From: a virus
DNA: 64,000 bases
Reading direction: 5' to 3' (one strand)
UHGV virus genome: UHGV-0090440
A program made the position numbers and the translations under genes. Positions 4,273 through 14,493 of this stretch are shown piece by piece. Each line of letters opens with the position of its first letter. Within the stretch, counting starts at the first letter, position 1. A model generated the notes under the pieces. The model searched no databases. It worked only from the letters and a program-made list of their open reading frames with translations, and had not been told where the DNA came from.

Positions 4273-5773
4273 CCAGATCCGGCATTTCGATATCCGCCAG
4301 AACCTGATCTCGGAAAGTTGCCATTTCGGCACCAATATCTTCATTAGCAGGCACATAGTCCACCAGCATAGTGAAGCAGTAGGTATCCCATCGGTCAGGC
4401 GATTTGATGTTTAGCTTTTGCCGCATGTGCTCTTTGCGCATCATCGCCATTTTCCCTTCTTCATTCATTAAAAAGGGGATTTTTGACGCTTGCTCTGCCG
4501 TTTTAGGGTCACTGTCTATCCGCATACGCCCTGACTTTATGGCATCACGCGCCATGATATTTGCGTAGGCACGCTGATTAACAAATCGCTCCCTGTCTTT
4601 GTTCGCAAACATGGGTTTTCCCCACCGAATACGTACCGGGTTCGCACCACGACGCACCAACTGCGCACACGTATCAGAACCAAAACCATCAGCATCAACC
4701 GCGATTGTTATATTCGGGTATTTTTCCGGCGTACATTCGTTATATATGAAGTCAGCAAAGGCCAATGGGTCCATAGTGCCAGGCATCTCCATTACCTTAA
4801 AGTTAACAACGCGCCGCTTATCCCTGTGACCTGATACCTTGCAGATGTTGAGGACCGACTTATCTCGCCCATTACCAACGTCAGCCGTTGCCACCCATCC
4901 CCAGTTTTTCTCCAACAACACCTTGCGGCGAGCAGAGCGATCGCATTCATCACGACCAAGCAAATAGCCGTTAATTTCTCGTGGGAACTGACCAAGCACC
5001 TTGACCATGTACTCAATAGAATCGCGCCCGCCATATTCCAGAAGCTTCTCCTTGATGAATTGTGGTGTGACGAACGGTGATTCTTCCGAGTTAAGAACAA
5101 TTGCTGTCCAGATCCCTTTCGGGTTGTCTGGGGTTTTTGCTCGAGAATGGTGCGAATCGTAGAAATAACCACTTGGCCTTGTTGGCTGGGATAGCATCAA
5201 CATCCGGTTATCTTCTTCAGTAAGAGCACCGGTCATTACGCCGATCGCCTTATCAGATATACCAGATGCTTCATCCAGAATTAGAAGCAAATGTGCCGCG
5301 TGTTCCCCCGCCAGCGCTTCTTCGTTGCCGAGTCGATAACCTTTGCAGAGAACTTCCCAAATCCCCTTACGGGAGCGCTCATAAAACATGGTGTCAGAGA
5401 GGACAAAATAGGTCTGCAACCACCCATGACGCTTAACTGCATTCGCCCAATACTGTTTAACGTATTTGAATACGCCTGTTTTTACCTGGCCTATCTTGTT
5501 AGCAACAATGATGACACGGGCATCGGGGAACAGGATCATAAAAATCAACAGCAACATCGCGGTAAGGGACGACTTCCCCGTTCCGTGTCCGGACGTGACG
5601 GTAGTCCTACTCCCCGTTTCCTGTACGGACTGAATGATCTGCTGCTGCTGCGGGGAGGGGAACATCCCAAAAATATCGACAACAGCCTGGGTAAAGTTGT
5701 AGCGGTATTTGATTACCATATCGCGCCAGCGTGGATCTCTGGTGACGCATTTAACCTTGCGCCCGCCAGCCAT
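4265..5773 (-). CDS. pacB: terminase large subunit (PacB-like)
   Basis: 502 aa; Walker A SGHGTGKSS, Walker B LLILDEAS, C-terminal acidic nuclease-type region (IAVDADGFG); translationally coupled to the upstream small subunit. Confidence 0.85.
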   Translation of the reverse strand: MAGGRKVKCVTRDPRWRDMVIKYRYNFTQAVVDIFGMFPSPQQQQIIQSVQETGSRTTVTSGHGTGKSSLTAMLLLIFMILFPDARVIIVANKIGQVKTGVFKYVKQYWANAVKRHGWLQTYFVLSDTMFYERSRKGIWEVLCKGYRLGNEEALAGEHAAHLLLILDEASGISDKAIGVMTGALTEEDNRMLMLSQPTRPSGYFYDSHHSRAKTPDNPKGIWTAIVLNSEESPFVTPQFIKEKLLEYGGRDSIEYMVKVLGQFPREINGYLLGRDECDRSARRKVLLEKNWGWVATADVGNGRDKSVLNICKVSGHRDKRRVVNFKVMEMPGTMDPLAFADFIYNECTPEKYPNITIAVDADGFGSDTCAQLVRRGANPVRIRWGKPMFANKDRERFVNQRAYANIMARDAIKSGRMRIDSDPKTAEQASKIPFLMNEEGKMAMMRKEHMRQKLNIKSPDRWDTYCFTMLVDYVPANEDIGAEMATFRDQVLADIEMPDLDI

Positions 5774-8027: not shown

Positions 8028-8602
8028 CAGAAAGCCTCCCAGTCAGTCGCGATAATATCCACACCAGTTGCAAACCAGTCTGTCTGCGCCTGTAAATCAC
8101 CATTCATCATTACCAGGCGAGGCATCACCATCACATCGCACCCTTCCACAATATCGAATGCCTCTTCCGGCAAGAATTCGAAGAGCTTTTCTTTGCTGCC
8201 AATGCTGCCACGGAACATCGATATATAGCTCCCTTTAGGCCATGATGTCCGCCGGGCATCAAGCCCTTTCATCATCCAGTAAAAAGCCGAGGAAAAAGGG
8301 ATATTCTTTTTGCCAATGATTACATTATTCGCTTCTGTGTACTTCAGGAACTTAACTAACCTTACCATTGACTCGGATAACGCAACGTATGGCTCATGAT
8401 TGATTGCTGACACGCTTACACCGTGCAATCCAACGCTTACCACTGTCATATCGCCGCTCTGTGCGGTTTCGATATTGACGCCTTTGCGAACTAATGAGGC
8501 GTAAAGTTCCTCTCGCTTTTGGGTCCAGCGTTCCCGCCTCCCTATGAAGTCACTCAAAATGAGATCTTCTTCTGCATATGCGTTATCGTTCGCCGTTAAC
8601 AT
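8027..8602 (-). CDS. hypothetical protein
   Basis: 191-aa ORF with AAAAGGAG RBS. Confidence 0.55.
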   Translation of the reverse strand: MLTANDNAYAEEDLILSDFIGRRERWTQKREELYASLVRKGVNIETAQSGDMTVVSVGLHGVSVSAINHEPYVALSESMVRLVKFLKYTEANNVIIGKKNIPFSSAFYWMMKGLDARRTSWPKGSYISMFRGSIGSKEKLFEFLPEEAFDIVEGCDVMVMPRLVMMNGDLQAQTDWFATGVDIIATDWEAF

Positions 8603-8722
8603 AACGTCTCCTTTTTACACGCGCGACCATCTCTCGGTTAAACCGATAGAGATGTCGAAACTTCGTATTAATTAAGGGTTACAGCCTGAGCGGCTATATG
8701 ATGAATTGAAAGGAGTTGTGGC

Positions 8723-8737
8723 GGTGGTGCCTCCACC
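8723..8737. other. conserved hairpin GGTGG-TGCCT-CCACC
   Basis: One of three hairpins sharing the core GGTGCCTCC with compensatory changes in the outer stem (see 10371 and 12343). Confidence 0.4.
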
Positions 8738-8822
8738 TGCCAGGTTAGCCACTCCTGGCGACGTCACTTATCAGAACGTAGTGAATGAAAATGGCTTCGT
8801 CACGAGCGCATAGCCGCAATTA

Positions 8823-8871
8823 CCACAACGGAAACGGCGCTCGCGTTAATTAAACGCCTTTTCCTGTTGTG
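8823..8871 (-). ncRNA. structured element, family member E1
   Basis: Imperfect long inverted repeat CCACAACGGAAACGG...CCTTTTCCTGTTGTG downstream of tRNA-Ile on the transcribed strand. Confidence 0.3.
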
Positions 8872-9055
8872 CGCCGTACTCTTCCGGCTGTCACACCGAA
8901 TCGCCAGGGTGGTGAGTCCTCGGTCCGACGATATGAACGGGGCTTGCACATTCCGGCTACCTGGTTTGTTGCCTGAGCTAGGGGAAAAGGTAACCCCTTT
9001 AACGTCACCAGACCGCTAACGACGCATGTGCCATACGCCGTGTTACAACCAAATA

Positions 9056-9131
9056 TGGTGGCCCCTACCGGACTTGAACCGGTGACCGTGCGATTATGAG
9101 TCGCCAGCTCTAACCACTGAGCTAAAGGGCC
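9056..9131 (-). tRNA. tRNA-Ile (anticodon CAU, ileX-like)
   Basis: 76-nt cloverleaf by hand folding: acceptor GGCCCTT/AGGGGCC, D-arm GCTCAGTGGTTAGAGC, anticodon loop CTCATAA, T-loop TTCAAGT, encoded CCA. Near-identical to E. coli ileX as recalled; CAT could also read Met. Confidence 0.85.
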
Positions 9132-9285
9132 AGATTACTGTTAATTCCGCTTACGCTTTTTGCCAGGACCGCGTAAGGCTTTTGCTGCTTGCTCGACCCC
9201 ATATACAACCACCAGCAGAAATAAAAATGTCCACCAAGGGTTCTTATCGGCAAACGTCCAAAATTCCATCATGTTCTCTATTTGG

Positions 9286-10113
9286 TTATTTCACCGGAAC
9301 AAACGGAACAGCGGTATTACTGGTCATATACTGCGGTAGCGTTCCGTTCCATTTGTTGATCGCTTCCAACTCCATAACGCCGGGGTTCTGGCGCAGAGCC
9401 TCACCGCGTAAACGAATGGCATCAGCTTCAGCCTGGGCTTTTGTGCGAATGGCATCGGCCTGTCCGGCAGCTTCTGCGCGCAGCATGTTGGCTTCTGCTT
9501 CGCGTTGCTTGACTTCCTGCTCGCGTTGCAGAGTTTTCTGGTTCGCCGTGACTTTGGCATTAATGCTGTCGATAACGGTTGGCGGGTACTCCGGCTTGCC
9601 CACATATGAGAGGCTCATTACCTGAATACCGATGGGCGTCATTTCTTCCTGGATGTCTTTAAGAGCTGCATCCAGTAGTTCAGACTTGCCACCGTCGATA
9701 AATTTGTCGGTGGTCATTTTGCTGGCCAGTCGGTTAAGTGCGTCGGCAATCTTCTGGCGCAGATCGGTGTCGGTAATGTCATCCACGCCTTTGCGGTAGG
9801 TCTGAAATACAGTTGTGACTTTTGCCGGATCAACCTTGTAAGCTACACCAATGTGGTAACCAATTGTTGTCCCGTCGCTCATTTGGAAGCTGAACGGATC
9901 ATCATAGGTCTTCATTTGCTTAAAGGTCGGGAAGATATAAACTTCTGTGTTCCAGCCTGTCCAGTAGCGACCAACGCCAACTACTTCGCCGACACCTTTA
10001 TCATCCCCCAGCTTATTTACTTTGATCCCTACATTGCCTGGTTCTACCCGGTCGCATCCGGTCAGACATAAAGAACCAAAAATAATCGCTGCACTAATCA
10101 ACGTTTTTTTCAT
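9286..10113 (-). CDS. SPFH/band-7 domain lipoprotein
   Basis: 275 aa; signal peptide with lipobox LTGC; SPFH-type core and Ala/Glu-rich coiled-coil tail (EAEANMLRAEAAGQADAIRTKAQAEADAIR). Confidence 0.8.
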   Translation of the reverse strand: MKKTLISAAIIFGSLCLTGCDRVEPGNVGIKVNKLGDDKGVGEVVGVGRYWTGWNTEVYIFPTFKQMKTYDDPFSFQMSDGTTIGYHIGVAYKVDPAKVTTVFQTYRKGVDDITDTDLRQKIADALNRLASKMTTDKFIDGGKSELLDAALKDIQEEMTPIGIQVMSLSYVGKPEYPPTVIDSINAKVTANQKTLQREQEVKQREAEANMLRAEAAGQADAIRTKAQAEADAIRLRGEALRQNPGVMELEAINKWNGTLPQYMTSNTAVPFVPVK

Positions 10114-10330
10114 TAATCAATTTCCTGGTTTTTTCACGAAAAAAGACTACTGCAAAAGCCGGGTAAATGAGCGCGAGAAGGACTCCCAACAATACAAGTA
10201 TTGTGCTGTCAGATGAGATCATATTTGGCAAAAGCCAAACATACAGAACCAGTGACACAATCAAACAGAGGACGGCATAAATATATAGCCGCACCCATAG
10301 CGTTCGACATTTGTTCGGATTGTTCTGCAT
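10094..10330 (-). CDS. small membrane protein
   Basis: 78 aa with two hydrophobic helices; overlaps the start of the SPFH gene (operon partner). Confidence 0.5.
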   Translation of the reverse strand: MQNNPNKCRTLWVRLYIYAVLCLIVSLVLYVWLLPNMISSDSTILVLLGVLLALIYPAFAVVFFREKTRKLINEKNVD

Positions 10331-10370
10331 CCTCTCACTCCATTATTCAACGAATAAAAAAGCTGCGGTG

Positions 10371-10385
10371 CCTGGTGCCTCCAGG
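10371..10385. other. conserved hairpin CCTGG-TGCCT-CCAGG
   Basis: Second copy of the GGTGCCTCC-core hairpin; on the minus strand it is followed after 9 nt by a T6 run and lies about 45 nt upstream of the 78-aa gene start. Confidence 0.4.
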
Positions 10386-10477
10386 TGACGTTAACCAGTT
10401 AACAATTAACGCCGGGATGTTTGATTTAACCACTACGGAGGATTGTTTTAACTGTTCCGCGTGCGCTTAGCCGCATT

Positions 10478-10592
10478 CACCGCAATGGTAAGAGCACTTG
10501 GCTGGCTGGGCGGCGATGACGCCTGTACGCATTTGGTGATCCGGTTCTGCTTCCGGCATTCGCTTAATTAGCCAAATACTCTTAACGTTGCG
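10478..10592 (-). ncRNA. structured element, family member E2
   Basis: Arms CACCGCAATGGTAAGAGCACTTGG / CCAAATACTCTTAACGTTGCG enclosing internal hairpins; begins 2 nt after the 3' end of the Ser-like tRNA candidate. Confidence 0.3.
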
Positions 10593-10593
10593 C

Positions 10594-10680
10594 TGGCGGA
10601 GAGTAATGGAATCGAACCATCATCGCTTGCGCAATGGGACGGTTTTCAAGACCGCTTGAGCACCATGCTCCCTACTCTCC
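10594..10680 (-). tRNA. tRNA-Ser(UGA)-like, atypical; possible pseudogene
   Basis: 87 nt: perfect 7-bp acceptor GGAGAGT/ACTCTCC, T-arm GATGG-TTCGATT-CCATT, anticodon stem-loop GCGGT-CTTGAAA-ACCGT (anticodon TGA), 17-nt variable arm, encoded CCA; but A at position 8 and a short D-loop. Hand-folded only. Confidence 0.4.
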
Positions 10681-10802
10681 AATTGTTGTGGTTACCGGTA
10701 CTGATCTCCGGCTTAGCGACCCCGGCTACTGACTGCATTGCAGTGTGTGAACTCGCCTCGTGTGTCGCTGGGGCATTTCTTTCCGCGCATCAGTCTGCGC
10801 AT

Positions 10803-10882
10803 CAACCACAACGGAAAGAGCATTGGCTAACCAGGCTCGCCGACTCTTCACGATTATCGGCCCAATGCTCTTACCTGTTGTG
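10803..10882 (-). ncRNA. structured element, family member E3
   Basis: Arms CAACCACAACGGAAAGAGCATTGG / CCCAATGCTCTTACCTGTTGTG with a 34-nt insert. Confidence 0.3.
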
Positions 10883-11061
10883 CGCTCCGTTTCGTGGAGC
10901 TAACGGCGGGTGATCGGGCCGCACCAGACTGGACTTATTTCAGCGTTATGCTCATGCCAGAGAATCAAACTGTGATGGTCGGTGCTGAACTCCGACACAG
11001 GGTTGTAGCAAGCCCCGCAAAGCGCGCACTACTGTAGTTGCGGCACATCAGCCTGTGCATT

Positions 11062-11161
11062 CACCACAATGTTGAGAACACTGGTTGTCACGCTGCCTCG
11101 CGACCTTTATTCATAGATTGGGATATGACCCCGTTACGCCAATGTTCTCAACGTTGTAGTG
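11062..11161 (-). ncRNA. structured element, family member E4
   Basis: Arms CACCACAATGTTGAGAACACTGG / CCAATGTTCTCAACGTTGTAGTG; insert contains an AGGCAG-loop hairpin. Confidence 0.3.
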
Positions 11162-11297
11162 CCGGTTACGGTTCCGGCCAGGCTTCTTCCTCAACGGGGT
11201 GTTCTCCATACGGACTACCGTTTATTGGTCGTTCCTGCGGTTTATGTTGTGAAGCCAGATGCTTATCTTCTGGTTGCTTCAAAGAGCTGCACTTCAT

Positions 11298-11384
11298 CAC
11301 AACGGTAAGGGTACTTCGTAGGGATTCGAACCCTCTGCCAAGCTCGGCGATCTCCGACGTCGCAAAATACCCTTACCTGTTGTG
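11298..11384 (-). ncRNA. tRNA-like element E5 (no anticodon arm)
   Basis: 16-bp stem CACAACGGTAAGGGTA/TACCCTTACCTGTTGTG enclosing a D-arm-like hairpin (GCGA-CGTCGGAGA-TCGC) and a T-arm-like hairpin (GAGGG-TTCGAAT-CCCTA); starts 2 nt after the tRNA-Thr 3' end. Confidence 0.35.
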
Positions 11385-11385
11385 T

Positions 11386-11461
11386 TGGTGCCGGTTAACG
11401 GACTCGAACCGCTGACATCCTGCTTACAAGGCAGGCGCTCTACCAACTGAGCTAAACCGGC
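11386..11461 (-). tRNA. tRNA-Thr (anticodon UGU)
   Basis: 76 nt: acceptor GCCGGTT/AACCGGC, D-arm GCTCAGTTGGTAGAGC, anticodon loop CTTGTAA, T-loop TTCGAGT, encoded CCA. Confidence 0.9.
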
Positions 11462-11465
11462 AATT

Positions 11466-11552
11466 TGGTGGGGAGTGATGGAGTCGAACCACCCGAGTCG
11501 CAATGACAGTAGATTTACAGTCTACCCCGCTGCCCCTACGGACTAACTCCCC
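11466..11552 (-). tRNA. tRNA-Tyr (anticodon GUA), type II
   Basis: 87 nt: acceptor GGGGAGT/ACTCCCC, anticodon stem-loop GTAGA-CTGTAAA-TCTAC, long variable arm, T-loop TTCGACT, encoded CCA. Confidence 0.8.
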
Positions 11553-11557
11553 TAAAT

Positions 11558-11632
11558 TGGCGATGGTGGGTGGATTCGAACCACCGACCAGTTGGTTAAC
11601 AGCCAACTGCTCTACCGCTGAGCTACACCATC
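11558..11632 (-). tRNA. tRNA-Asn (anticodon GUU)
   Basis: 75 nt: acceptor GATGGTG/CACCATC, D-arm GCTCAGCGGTAGAGC, anticodon loop CTGTTAA, T-loop TTCGAAT, encoded CCA. Confidence 0.9.
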
Positions 11633-12085
11633 ACTTGCCGGGTACGTCTCCGGCGAGGGCTTCCACCTCCGTATGCTTTTCGGCGCACCGCGCCCTGGCT
11701 GCAATTCGGTAACAGGGGATGCATAACCCTGGCTTCCAGCGTGATTAGCGCCTTCAGCATGACGGGATATACCCGTTGCAAGACATTATCCCAGAAAGCC
11801 ATTAACCAATGGCTGTTACGCGGGAGGGACGTAACAGGTAAGGGCGCTGACCAGAAAGACCTGACCCTTCTCATTCATCTGGTTAATCACACCAGCGCCC
11901 TTGCCTGTTATGCCTCCCCGTTCCCTAATACACAGACGGGGACACTCTGCGGTCGATTTTTTGACGGGGGACGACTCATACCCCGTGGCGTCAGGCTTCT
12001 TAGGCCGCTACCATCATCAGATCATCGTTTGCATTTACTTTAATGGTCGGTTTCTAAACCGCCGCAAAGTCGCTAACCATGACGA

Positions 12086-12116
12086 AAACCCTAAAAAAGC
12101 CCACCCGAAGATGGGC
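12086..12116 (-). terminator. intrinsic terminator (minus strand)
   Basis: Minus strand reads GCCCATC-TTCG-GGTGGGC followed by TTTTTTAGGGTTTTC; upstream of the Asn-Tyr-Thr tRNA cluster. Confidence 0.45.
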
Positions 12117-12140
12117 AAATACGCTACGTATCACACAAGA

Positions 12141-12212
12141 AAGAAGCCGACTGCCTGAACTGGATTCACTTTCAAATGCCCGCTGAAAGGGATCACAAGT
12201 CGGCTTCTTTCT
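12141..12212. repeat. long inverted repeat with nested hairpin
   Basis: Perfect 16-bp arms AAGAAAGAAGCCGACT / AGTCGGCTTCTTTCTT separated by about 40 bp that contain a second hairpin (CTTTCA...TGAAAG). Confidence 0.4.
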
Positions 12213-12342
12213 TGATGCGGCACTCTCTCCGCCCGTCACCGCTCTGTCTCGGTTGTCGCGTTTGCCACGCCAGCCATAACGAGGTTTAAAGTCTTTGCAC
12301 GTTCCCATCACTCGACTGCCGTCTGAGGCTGTTCGTTGCAGC

Positions 12343-12357
12343 GGGGGTGCCTCCCCC
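12343..12357. other. conserved hairpin GGGGG-TGCCT-CCCCC
   Basis: Third copy of the GGTGCCTCC-core hairpin with a different, fully complementary outer stem. Confidence 0.4.
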
Positions 12358-12426
12358 TGGGGATATCCCCGGCCTTACCCCATTCTTTCAAGACACAATG
12401 CAAGGCCACATCCGCATAGGTGCATT

Positions 12427-12488
12427 ACCGCAACATTAAGGAGGCATAGGGCGGTTACCTTTTGCCCTGAGTCTCCTTAATGTTGAAG
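12427..12488 (-). ncRNA. structured element, family member E6
   Basis: Arms ACCGCAACATTAAGGAG / CTCCTTAATGTTGAAG enclosing hairpin AGGGC...GCCCT. Confidence 0.3.
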
Positions 12489-12840
12489 ATGTGCATTGAT
12501 GATTAGATGCAGCATGTACCGTTACTCTCTGCCGGACCATCATCAATGAACACCTTAAAAAGACCTTCCGTGGCTCAACATGGACTGTCGTTTACTCCGC
12601 AAAGTGCTCTCTCTGAAACCACTTTCCGCACTAAACCTGCTGAATTTTGGCCTGCACGGTGCCAAAGCGTGCTCTTGCGTTACCATACTTTTCTAACGCT
12701 TTAATTTGTTAAATGCTGGTGGGCGAACAATAACCAATAAGTGACTATCAAGCCCAGCAAGCGAAACGTGGGTGCCGCCCACCAGCAAGGAAAATTCTAT
12801 GTTAAGTTACCTTCACAATCAATACATTCGAATCGTAATT

Positions 12841-12854
12841 TTAGATTTCTAACA
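12841..12854 (-). promoter_or_regulatory. recurrent 14-bp motif site (TGTTAGAAATCTAA)
   Basis: At the 3' end of the 402-aa gene, oriented toward the tRNA cluster on the minus strand. Confidence 0.4.
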
Positions 12855-12856
12855 CA

Positions 12857-14065
12857 TTATTTCCCGTAAAGATCTTCTACACCCCCATTCTTCTTATCCC
12901 ATTCGTTCGCCCATACCCGGCAAGCGTCAATGATTTCCTGACGACGATCTCCTTGCATGAACGGAATGCTTTCATGGAAACAGCTTGGAATGCAGGCCAC
13001 ACTGAATACAGTATCAAACTCCGTCTGCTTGATTGCCTCCAGCGTCTCCGGACGCATTTTTAATTCATCGATTGGCGCATCCTTAGAGTCCATAATCCGG
13101 CGATATAAGCGCGGAAAATCCGTCTCCAGGTACGCCATAATTTTATCTGCGAGACATTCGTCTATGTCGGTATTCCAGTCCTTTTCGAAGCCCGGCAGGC
13201 GATAGTAAAGCGGCGTTCCCCATACCGATGGGATCACATCCATCGTTAACAGGCGATTGGTTCTGATTTGTTGATGGTAATTAGCCGTCAGCAGTGCTTC
13301 GCCACGCTGCCCAGTTTCCGCAACCAGGCCGTGCGGATACTCATGGATGTAGGCAATGGCATCCCGCCCATCATACATAAGTGGAAATGTCTCTGGTCTT
13401 TGTCCCATGCCACAAGCACGGTTCAGATCGTGACCAAGCTGTGAGCACTCTCGCTTTAATGTTTCGATAATGCTCTGTGCTGTAGCCAACTTTTTACGCA
13501 GTGTGACGCCTTCGCCTTGATAATCAATGCATTGCTGATTGAGCTTGGTTAAACGCTCTTTTAGTTCCCGGCGCTCTCTTTTCAGCGTGCGGTTATCCTT
13601 CTCCGCAACATCCAGCCGCTTTGTCAGGCTGGGCGGATAGTCTTTTTTGTAACGGTTCAAATCGGCTTCGGCAGATTTACGCAGTGTATTTGCCTGTTCA
13701 AGACGCGCTTCCAGATTGCCGATCTCATTACGCATATTCACGGCAAATTGATTAACTGCATCACCCAGGCTTTCAACTGTCGCTGATACGCCTGTGACTT
13801 GTGAAAAACGGATCAAGCCATCATTAACGGCTTGTTGGTATTCCTCAAACTGATCCACCAGCTTATTGTAATCAACTGCCCCATCATCAAGCAGCTTGTT
13901 GATTTCCGCCACCAGGTTATCTGTAGTGGCAATGACACTCTCGTGCAGTCGCTTTGACAGGTCATCACCCGGATTCCGTTTCTGTATAAGAGCGATTTGT
14001 GTGCGCAGCGTTTCAATTGCTGTCGAGATAATTTCCAGATTAGAAGCATCAGTGTGTTGACTCAT
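12857..14065 (-). CDS. hypothetical protein, N-terminal coiled coil with C-terminal globular domain
   Basis: 402 aa; residues 1-220 are heptad-rich and charged, C-terminal 180 aa has conserved-looking Cys/His/Trp; motif copy 25 bp upstream, terminator further upstream. Confidence 0.6.
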   Translation of the reverse strand: MSQHTDASNLEIISTAIETLRTQIALIQKRNPGDDLSKRLHESVIATTDNLVAEINKLLDDGAVDYNKLVDQFEEYQQAVNDGLIRFSQVTGVSATVESLGDAVNQFAVNMRNEIGNLEARLEQANTLRKSAEADLNRYKKDYPPSLTKRLDVAEKDNRTLKRERRELKERLTKLNQQCIDYQGEGVTLRKKLATAQSIIETLKRECSQLGHDLNRACGMGQRPETFPLMYDGRDAIAYIHEYPHGLVAETGQRGEALLTANYHQQIRTNRLLTMDVIPSVWGTPLYYRLPGFEKDWNTDIDECLADKIMAYLETDFPRLYRRIMDSKDAPIDELKMRPETLEAIKQTEFDTVFSVACIPSCFHESIPFMQGDRRQEIIDACRVWANEWDKKNGGVEDLYGK

Positions 14066-14089
14066 TGCTGTTCCCGTTACCTTGTTAAA

Positions 14090-14103
14090 TTAGTTTTCTA
14101 ACA
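14090..14103 (-). promoter_or_regulatory. recurrent 14-bp motif site (TGTTAGAAAACTAA)
   Basis: Identical to the site at 3172-3185; lies between a terminator and the 402-aa gene start. Confidence 0.4.
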
Positions 14104-14144
14104 TATTTTATTAGTTTGATGACGGTAGCGAAAGATGCAATAAA

Positions 14145-14175
14145 CAAAAAACCCGCCAATTGGCGGGTTTTTATG
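14145..14175. terminator. bidirectional intrinsic terminator
   Basis: A-run, ACCCGCCAA/TTGGCGGGT palindrome, T-run (AAAAAACCCGCCAATTGGCGGGTTTTTAT). Confidence 0.6.
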
Positions 14176-14178
14176 CAA

Positions 14179-14493
14179 TTACTGTGTTGCAGCCTGATAA
14201 ATAAGATACGAGATAAATACAGGTACGATGGCCCATTCCAGCAATGAAAGTAGCCTCATTACTGTTATTGGGGTAACTCCATCCACGTATTGTTTCTCTG
14301 ACATTTTCCCTAACCAACTAACCGACAACAGTGCCGAGTTTTCACCCAATTCCAGCTCTCTGAGCGCTTCACGGATTAACGGCGCTGTCACAGCCTTAAC
14401 CGGTGTGCTCAACGTGATACTCCGCGTCCTCCCCGCATCGTCAGCGAACGCCAGACTCACATAATATTTTTTGCTCAATGTACAAACTCCCAA
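14179..14493 (-). CDS. hypothetical protein with C-terminal hydrophobic segment
   Basis: 104-aa ORF ending in a probable transmembrane helix; followed by the terminator. Confidence 0.45.
   Translation of the reverse strand: MGVCTLSKKYYVSLAFADDAGRTRSITLSTPVKAVTAPLIREALRELELGENSALLSVSWLGKMSEKQYVDGVTPITVMRLLSLLEWAIVPVFISYLIYQAATQ

Follow-up and report, generated by a model that had tools for sequence, protein, structure and literature searches.

An SPFH lipoprotein gene and its small overlapping partner

The window analysed here is a 64,000-nucleotide stretch of viral DNA (UHGV virus genome UHGV-0090440), and the locus under study, positions 9,286 to 10,330, carries a gene for an SPFH/Band-7 lipoprotein together with a gene for a small membrane protein. 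An initial annotation of this DNA had proposed a band-7/SPFH protein with a membrane partner, and both open reading frames (ORFs) are indeed present on the minus strand with exactly the boundaries that it gave:

9286..10113, minus strand: SPFH/Band-7 lipoprotein, 275 aa (Pfam PF01145, PHROG 200, AlphaFold2/Foldseek)
10094..10330, minus strand: 78-aa helical-hairpin inner-membrane protein, predicted N-in/C-in (PHROG 1130, AlphaFold2, charge count)

The 275-aa protein belongs to the SPFH/Band 7 superfamily. It matches the Pfam profile Band_7 (PF01145) over positions 2–176 of 176 with 107.9 bits (cut-off 23.6, E 7.8e-31), and PHROG 200, a family labelled 'lipoprotein', with an E-value of 1.4e-114. 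Its N-terminus, MKKTLISAAIIFGSLCLTGC|DR, contains a canonical lipobox (LTGC) with Cys20 and an aspartate at position +2, which bears out the earlier description of this protein as a lipoprotein. The signal peptide, MKK-TLISAAIIFGSLC-LTGC, has the positive n-region, hydrophobic h-region and lipobox of an Lgt/LspA substrate. Using the criterion [LVI][ASTVI][GAS]C, the lipobox cysteine was recognised in 103 of 119 close homologues (LVGC, LTGC and similar) and none was recognised in 16. Aspartate is found at +2 in 98 of 103 enterobacterial homologues; in the window this residue is Asp21, which under the +2 rule of E. coli predicts retention of the lipoprotein in the inner membrane. The family is also characterised by a conserved C-terminal motif, KWNGxLP...PF. 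In databases, the routine labels for SPFH genes of phages are 'lipoprotein', 'SPFH domain protein' and 'serine protease'.

The 78-aa protein falls into PHROG 1130, a family labelled 'membrane protein' (E 3e-16), and has no Pfam family at E<=0.1. Beyond Band_7, the Pfam scan up to E 0.1 returned only five weak and unrelated matches, and NfeD (PF01957) had no match at this threshold. The protein had been described as a two-helix membrane protein, in agreement with the two helices predicted by AlphaFold2 and with a positive-inside distribution of Lys and Arg, which number 3 in the N-terminus, 0 in the loop and 5 in the C-terminus. From this 3/0/5 pattern an N-in/C-in hairpin is therefore predicted, with a periplasmic turn of nine residues, PNMISSDST. 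The turn is conserved (LLPNMISSDS), P-x-M-I-S-S being the sole conserved feature of the protein, and 14 residues remain at the C-terminus beyond helix 2. The two ORFs lie on the same strand and overlap by 20 nt, an arrangement that points to translational coupling and upholds the assignment of both genes to one operon.

In the rows listed for the E. coli RefSeq plasmids H41–H45, and also in phiP27 (L005 3304–3492), the match carries only an 'SPFH domain-containing protein' and the small ORF is not annotated, while some chromosomes, P88 and N4 do have it annotated. Since the small partner often lacks an annotation, the pairing is easily missed in databases.

For structure prediction with AlphaFold2 we used P0001 (E. 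coli, 94-kb contig, 8 member sequences), a 347-aa polypeptide in which these two ORFs are fused in frame (..LINEK|TLISAA..) and which could be either a natural frameshift variant or a sequencing error. The run was based on a 54-sequence alignment and yields a monomer prediction, whose residues are given in fusion numbering. In the model (mean pLDDT 82.4) the hairpin is made of helices 5–37 and 42–64, and the signal peptide forms a helix at 72–89. An alpha/beta SPFH domain follows (strands 92–166 and 235–247), then a long helix of 65 residues (250–314), and finally a short helix and a flexible tail bearing the KWNGxLP...PF motif. The long helix corresponds to residues 178–242 of the lipoprotein itself and agrees with the coiled-coil tail that had been proposed for it. 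A Foldseek search of the PDB returned 64 chains at E<=1e-3, the best with E-values of 1e-13 to 1e-14. The human prohibitin complex (8rrh), HflC/HflK (7vhq), erlin1/2 and stomatin lead the list, which also includes flotillin, QmcA and the major vault protein; all these listed matches are ring or cage formers.

Two known groups of SPFH proteins serve as points of reference. HflK/HflC and the prohibitins, which are among the best fold matches, share with the present protein the SPFH plus long-helix architecture and, by prediction, a location of the SPFH domain in the periplasm or intermembrane space, and their sequence matches in profile searches are weak but significant (E ~1e-4). However, whereas HflK and HflC are two adjacent SPFH paralogues anchored by transmembrane helices, and prohibitins likewise form a PHB1/2 pair, the locus studied here has a single SPFH gene with a lipobox signal peptide, a predicted lipid anchor and a separate two-helix partner. 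The scores for the HflK and HflC equivalogs are 23.5 bits for TIGR01933 hflK (cut-off 159.4) and 25.3 bits for TIGR01932 hflC (cut-off 134.4). The SPFH-NfeD operons (QmcA-YbbJ, YqiK-YqiJ, PDB 8z5g) also pair an SPFH gene with a co-transcribed gene for a small membrane protein, and of all solved structures QmcA gives the best profile-sequence match (E 1.5e-7). On the other hand, the partner in our window has no NfeD/OB-fold domain, and its SPFH protein is predicted to carry a lipid anchor and to expose its SPFH domain to the periplasm and not to the cytoplasm. The module is thus a member of the SPFH superfamily but neither an HflK/C pair nor an SPFH-NfeD system, and it is a distinct SPFH subfamily, about equally far by sequence from QmcA, prohibitin and HflK/C and more than 100 bits under the HflK and HflC thresholds.

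Conservation of the pair across phages and bacteria

Among 80 IMG/VR loci with a close SPFH homologue, a homologous small ORF lies directly upstream of the SPFH gene in 78, with an overlap of 1–20 nt. Of the other two loci, one is cut off by a contig end and one bears an IS21-family insertion; in the latter locus (L047 1825–4001) the element, with its IstA and IstB ORFs, sits within the small ORF at about codon 58, and the SPFH gene is intact. A word-indexed protein search with the 78-aa query retrieves close relatives only, and the distant partners were located through the neighbourhoods of SPFH genes. In this way a hairpin ORF with the turn motif P-x-[LM]-[ILVM]-S was found to precede the SPFH gene in many further contexts:

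P88 (P2-like): pair flanked by cox and gene A in the early operon; turn motif present in the small ORF
phiP27 and Stx-type prophages (lambdoid): pair in the leftward operon leading from HTH regulators to xis and int; small ORF unannotated in phiP27
Alcaligenes prophage: hairpin ORF upstream of the SPFH gene
156-kb contig of a virulent-type phage with RNR, Thy1 and homing endonucleases: hairpin ORF upstream of the SPFH gene
Coliphage N4 (gp19/gp20) and Shigella phage Moo19: hairpin and SPFH pair
Phage 4MG: hairpin ORF two genes upstream of the SPFH gene
Chromosomes of Leptospira, Dyella, Sutterella, Saprospirales, Aurantimicrobium and Pantoea: hairpin ORF upstream of the SPFH gene

The loci of Leptospira (sdh genes, ArsR) and Dyella (BlaR1-type peptidase, hemerythrin, RNR) are ordinary chromosome. 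Overall, the pair is present in 412 sequenced phages, the virulent carriers including N4-like, rV5-like, FelixO1-like, LUZ24-like, crAss-like, phiCbK-like and jumbo phages. Complete E. coli genomes match it in 514 of 5426 cases (~9%), at 393 chromosomal and 201 plasmid places, and an exhaustive phmmer search gave 2872 cluster representatives at E<=1e-3.

The two proteins also occur as one. Among the sequences inspected, about 25 distant homologues are single polypeptides in which the hairpin stands before the SPFH domain, and the internal lipobox cysteine between the two parts is kept in 25 of 26 fused homologues. One of these fusions, P0353, sits between RNase R and rpsP. The mid-polypeptide lipobox of the fusions P0176–P0353 and similar suggests that signal peptidase II splits a polytopic precursor into two proteins. 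The association of hairpin and SPFH gene is far beyond chance and, judging from the occurrence of pairs and fusions across phyla, it is ancient. Fusion and co-inheritance together are strong evidence that the two proteins work together.

The genome of coliphage N4 contains a counterpart of the pair, with which we compared the genes of the window. By BLASTP, gp20 is 63% identical to the SPFH lipoprotein over its full length (E 2e-128), while gp19 is 28% identical to the small protein (E 6e-9) and shares its LLPxM[IV]S turn. In both genomes the genes come in one order with overlapping ORFs, and the two pairs belong to the same families, PHROG 1130 and PHROG 200. N4 is, however, a virulent podovirus with the pair among its early/middle genes, whereas the pair of the window belongs to the tRNA array of a phage-plasmid, which is temperate; moreover, the lipobox cysteine is followed by Tyr-Asp in gp20 and by Asp-Arg in the window. 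The pair is therefore not peculiar to the present element; by its sequence relationships it is a member of the N4 gp19/gp20 family, found in phages and bacterial chromosomes. No function of gp19/gp20 is described in the literature searched.

A proposed periplasm-facing membrane scaffold and competing functions

We consider it reasonably probable, though by no means assured, that the pair makes up a two-component, periplasm-facing SPFH membrane scaffold, namely a cage with a hairpin subunit that corrals the inner membrane in lytic growth. This model builds on the architecture, on the lipobox with Asp at +2 and on the topology forced by the fusions, from which we infer the cage, the contact between the two proteins and the membrane patch. 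Indeed, since hairpin and SPFH domain are parts of one polypeptide in the fused homologues, the SPFH domain is forced into a periplasmic position tethered to the inner membrane. After Sec export, Cys20 would be lipidated, signal peptidase II would cleave the precursor, and the SPFH protein would be kept in the outer leaflet of the inner membrane. The long helices would drive its oligomerisation into a ring or dome, as in HflK/C, prohibitin, erlin and QmcA; such an assembly is suggested by the architecture and by the C-terminal KWNGxLP...PF motif. The hairpin protein would be the membrane-embedded subunit, its periplasmic turn contacting the membrane-proximal face of the SPFH domain, and would substitute for the N-terminal transmembrane helices of HflK/C. 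Together, the two proteins would fence off a patch of inner membrane.

The remaining steps of the scaffold model are weaker. The phage copy may have been captured from bacteria and may be expressed together with the early or middle genes of lytic growth; chromosomal copies next to RNase R/rpsP, sdh or BlaR1-type peptidase/RNR genes hint at such an origin. In P1-like phages the pair is located between the tRNA array and ban, where P1's own operon is annotated as C1-repressed. Because the pair occurs in strictly virulent phages and, in P1-, P2- and P27-like phages, in operons starting at the immunity/early region, a function in lytic growth is favoured over prophage conversion. Until the infected cell lyses, the module might then keep its inner membrane stable or compartmentalised, with respect to membrane-protein quality control, integrity and energisation.

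Several points weigh against the scaffold model. The similarity of the lipoprotein to solved SPFH proteins is weak, with E-values of 1e-4 to 1e-7 and 14–20% identity, and both the cage and the hairpin–SPFH contact are drawn from analogy and from gene fusion. Outside Enterobacterales the +2 residue is Ser or Thr in many homologues, and in N4 gp20 it is Tyr; therefore, retention in the inner membrane is not proven family-wide. The virulent phages DL54 and SeKF_13 have the SPFH gene and no recognisable hairpin ORF immediately upstream of it, so that the hairpin partner is either frequent and not universal or, in these genomes, encoded elsewhere. As for expression, sigma-70 promoter scans of 8600–11800 and 11600–14400 gave nothing usable for the operon, and the P1 C1 operator consensus, allowing up to 3 mismatches, has no match within the window. 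The membrane-maintenance benefit is the weakest step of all.

Other functions have to be weighed against this scaffold. One of them is superinfection exclusion at the inner membrane, in which hairpin and periplasmic lipoprotein would block the genome entry of secondary phages. The T4 protein Imm is a small two-helix inner-membrane protein acting with the periplasmic Sp, and exclusion lipoproteins include Llp, Cor and Ltp. The 78-aa protein resembles Imm-type proteins in size and topology, its SPFH partner is predicted to be a periplasm-facing lipoprotein, the pair is an exchangeable accessory cassette, and in N4 and Moo19 it adjoins a gene annotated as superinfection exclusion (P22 gp17-like). 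Nevertheless, we rate exclusion as unlikely: all three ORFs of the locus lack a PADLOC match at E<=1, the Pfam scan offered nothing of this kind among its five weak matches besides Band_7, a match to IncI1 ExcA is insignificant (E 0.098), and exclusion does not explain the pairs in housekeeping contexts of Leptospira, Dyella and other chromosomes. A role in lysis timing is very unlikely in our view, even though the hairpin topology and size fit a class II holin, these holins being typically 60–80 aa long with two helices and an N-in/C-in topology. The small protein would then be a holin of this class, an antiholin or a pinholin-like protein regulated by the SPFH lipoprotein, for example in lysis inhibition of the N4 type. 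A match to the holin family PHROG 565 is weak and not significant (E 0.096); neither here nor in N4 does an endolysin or spanin adjoin the pair, whose neighbours in the window are tRNAs and a tciC homologue (see below); and chromosomal non-phage copies and SPFH fusions are unlike a holin. N4 carries the pair and the mechanism of its lysis inhibition is reported as unsolved (PMC12642591), but gp19/gp20 are not mentioned in that study.

A specific mimicry of HflK/C seems distinctly unlikely. Here the cage would bind or displace host FtsH and thereby alter the degradation of membrane proteins or of phage regulators of the CII, CIII or Xis type; as a consequence, the lysis-lysogeny decision would be biased or phage membrane proteins protected. 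FtsH-type proteases are known to work with HflK/C and prohibitins (PMC2636767, PMC12048511); HflK, HflC and prohibitin rank high among the matches by both sequence and fold and share the predicted periplasm-facing orientation, and in P27-like prophages the pair lies within a leftward early operon ending in xis and int. However, the scores of 23–25 bits compare with equivalog thresholds of 134–159, the profile is equally close to the cytoplasm-facing QmcA, and 16–20% identity is too low for mapping an FtsH interface. A lone SPFH gene with a lipid anchor takes the place of the K/C pair with its transmembrane helices, and the pair is common in virulent phages, which have no lysogeny decision to bias. 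Finally, the lipoprotein could serve lysogenic conversion when expressed from a prophage or plasmid and act on the surroundings of the bacterium, for example as a TLR2 agonist or virulence factor carried by vesicles. A possible precedent is PM0222, an HflK/C-like SPFH protein of a Pasteurella multocida prophage, which is reported to occur in outer-membrane vesicles, to activate TLR1/2 and to contribute to virulence in mice (PMC9872710). Given that Asp at +2 predicts inner-membrane retention in E. coli, that the pair is abundant in virulent phages and that temperate phages carry it in operons starting at the early/immunity region, we find conversion most improbable.

Beyond the scaffold itself, we put forward, as a doubtful but not negligible proposal, that the module represents a hitherto unrecognised, NfeD-independent class of SPFH systems, in which a lipid-anchored, periplasm-facing cage is combined with a hairpin subunit of 60–80 aa, LspA cleaves the fused forms, and phages captured the whole to wall off membrane. 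If so, N4-, rV5-, P1-, P2-, lambda- and crAss-like phages as well as jumbo phages would seal off an inner-membrane patch early in infection. They might do so to protect the place of genome entry or assembly, to keep out the genomes of superinfecting phages or to postpone lysis, the lysis inhibition of N4 being perhaps one such case. Membrane biology currently pays much attention to SPFH cages (HflK/C, prohibitin, flotillin, stomatin, erlin), whose known bacterial partners are FtsH and NfeD proteins. The module would add a lipid-anchored, periplasm-facing version with a different and very small partner, along with evidence of antiquity and of frequent capture by phages. N4 gp19/gp20, or the phage-plasmid studied here, offers a compact and genetically tractable system for the role of an SPFH cage in a membrane under infection stress.

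SPFH genes in phages are already known, those of T4-like phages having been listed as 'novel ORFs' in 2006 (PMC1524935). In the literature searched we found no functional study of the SPFH lipoprotein/hairpin family, and the hairpin partner has no description in the literature and family libraries searched; the SPFH classification of Hinderhofer does not mention lipoprotein or phage members.

The tRNA slot and its leader RNA

Positions 1–25000 of the window are ~93% identical to ~90-kb non-mobilisable plasmids of E. coli and Salmonella, and are collinear with phage D6, a P1 relative having c1, pacAB and lpa. By these alignments, the element that hosts the pair is a D6-like phage-plasmid. The initial annotation had placed the pair between tRNA loci, and ARAGORN accordingly finds tRNA-Ser(UGA) and tRNA-Met(CAT) on either side of it and on the same strand. 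The features around the pair are:

9056..9131, minus strand: tRNA-Met(CAT), at the position of P1 trnI; downstream flank (ARAGORN)
9141..9272, minus strand: 43-aa single-helix ORF, P1 TciC homologue (MxFWxFADKxP N-terminus, DNA alignment with P1 and D6, PHROG 23152 E 1.5e-4)
10331..10363, minus strand: cassette-specific 5′ untranslated region GCUUUUUUAUUCGUUGAAUAAUGGAGUGAGAGG, made up of a U-run and, after it, the small ORF's Shine-Dalgarno sequence (alignment)
10364..10484, minus strand: multi-branched RNA, STnc100-like (Rfam RF02076 37.1 bits, covariation)
10594..10680, minus strand: tRNA-Ser(UGA); upstream flank (ARAGORN)
11632-11386, minus strand: tRNA-Asn, tRNA-Tyr and tRNA-Thr (ARAGORN)

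The slot between tRNA-Ser and tRNA-Met holds alternative cassettes. It is occupied by tciA-tciB (a TerB-family cassette) in D6 and by tciA-tciB-tciC in P1. In the window, as in RCS47 and Ro157c2YLVW, two P1-like phages, the hairpin and SPFH genes take this place, while tRNA-Met(CAT) is invariant across the window, P1, D6 and Ro157c2YLVW. The tci cassette is found in 674 complete E. coli genomes (513 plasmid places). Like the pair studied here, tciA-tciB-tciC follows the tRNA array and leader, precedes tRNA-Met and combines a soluble or peripheral protein, of the TerB family, with tiny membrane proteins; the two cassettes have no sequence relationship, however, and the window keeps only a tciC-like ORF. 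Comparison of these loci shows a cassette swap that replaced tciA-tciB and retained tciC. The 43-aa ORF was considered as a third subunit of the SPFH module and rejected, being the TciC homologue of the alternative cassette and missing in Ro157c2YLVW. We also rejected an equation of the pair with P1 plp/upl. There, too, a lipoprotein gene from this part of the P1 map has a small ORF in front of it, but the proteins are much smaller (125 and 63 aa) and unrelated, with E-values of 16 and 3.5, and their genes lie on the opposite strand relative to the tRNAs.

The operon had further been credited with a structured leader. A conserved RNA structure does exist, but it is not the operon's own. Between tRNA-Ser and the small ORF lie 263 nt that fold better than shuffled sequences (z -2.9), and the stretch 10364–10484 matches positions 31–147 of 206 of the Rfam model RF02076 with 37.1 bits, under the gathering score of 47 (E 1e-5 to 1e-6). 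In an alignment of the window/D6-type copies with the P1-type copies, 99.4% of the cells are paired, compared with 35–47% in slid controls, and there are 6 compensatory pairs as opposed to at most 1, although the alignment comprises essentially two lineages and hence few independent covariation events. STnc100 is a family of prophage small RNAs (sRNAs) recently linked to PasD (bioRxiv 10.64898/2026.05.13.724894). The first 230 nt of the leader recur upstream of tciA in D6 with 98.7% identity, and the leader was therefore rejected as an operon-specific regulator. The cassette junction falls immediately after the closing helix of the leader, so that the SPFH cassette takes along no more than the final ~33 nt; this stretch, GCUUUUUUAUUCGUUGAAUAAUGGAGUGAGAGG, is common to all SPFH-type loci, and unrelated sequence stands in its place in the tciA-type loci of D6 and P1. 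The STnc100-like element is the last of about four related repeats interleaved with tRNAs and is part of the backbone of the tRNA array and not a dedicated leader.

Further repeats and signals were noted in this part of the window. In the spacers of the tRNA array (10300–12700, minus strand as sense), four AGTGCTCTTACCATTGCGGTGAATGC-like copies are located at 10473, 10799, 11057 and 11290, and a second motif has three copies, at 10864, 11366 and 11894; these repeat modules may be processing signals or sRNA genes. Upstream of the array there is a strong terminator-like hairpin, GCCCATCTTCGGGTGGGC followed by T6 (12116–12099). An attempt to align the P1 Pban/Op72 sequence found no counterpart in the window. 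With ~90% identity, the region 11640–12120 corresponds to what is annotated in P1, downstream of Pban, as the 'dicF-like region'; an Rfam search of 10300–12760 listed no DicF. For tRNA-Ser(UGA) at 10594–10680, the Rfam tRNA-Sec model gives 44.6 bits (gathering score 47), above the general tRNA score; the better tRNA-Sec score is probably due only to the long variable arm of this tRNA. Finally, the D6 record NC_050154 (L002) has tRNA-Ser, tRNA-Thr and tRNA-Asn annotated on the strand opposite to the ARAGORN calls, omits tRNA-Met(CAT), which ARAGORN finds at 5257–5332, and contains at ~5340–5450 an unannotated equivalent of the TciC-like ORF.

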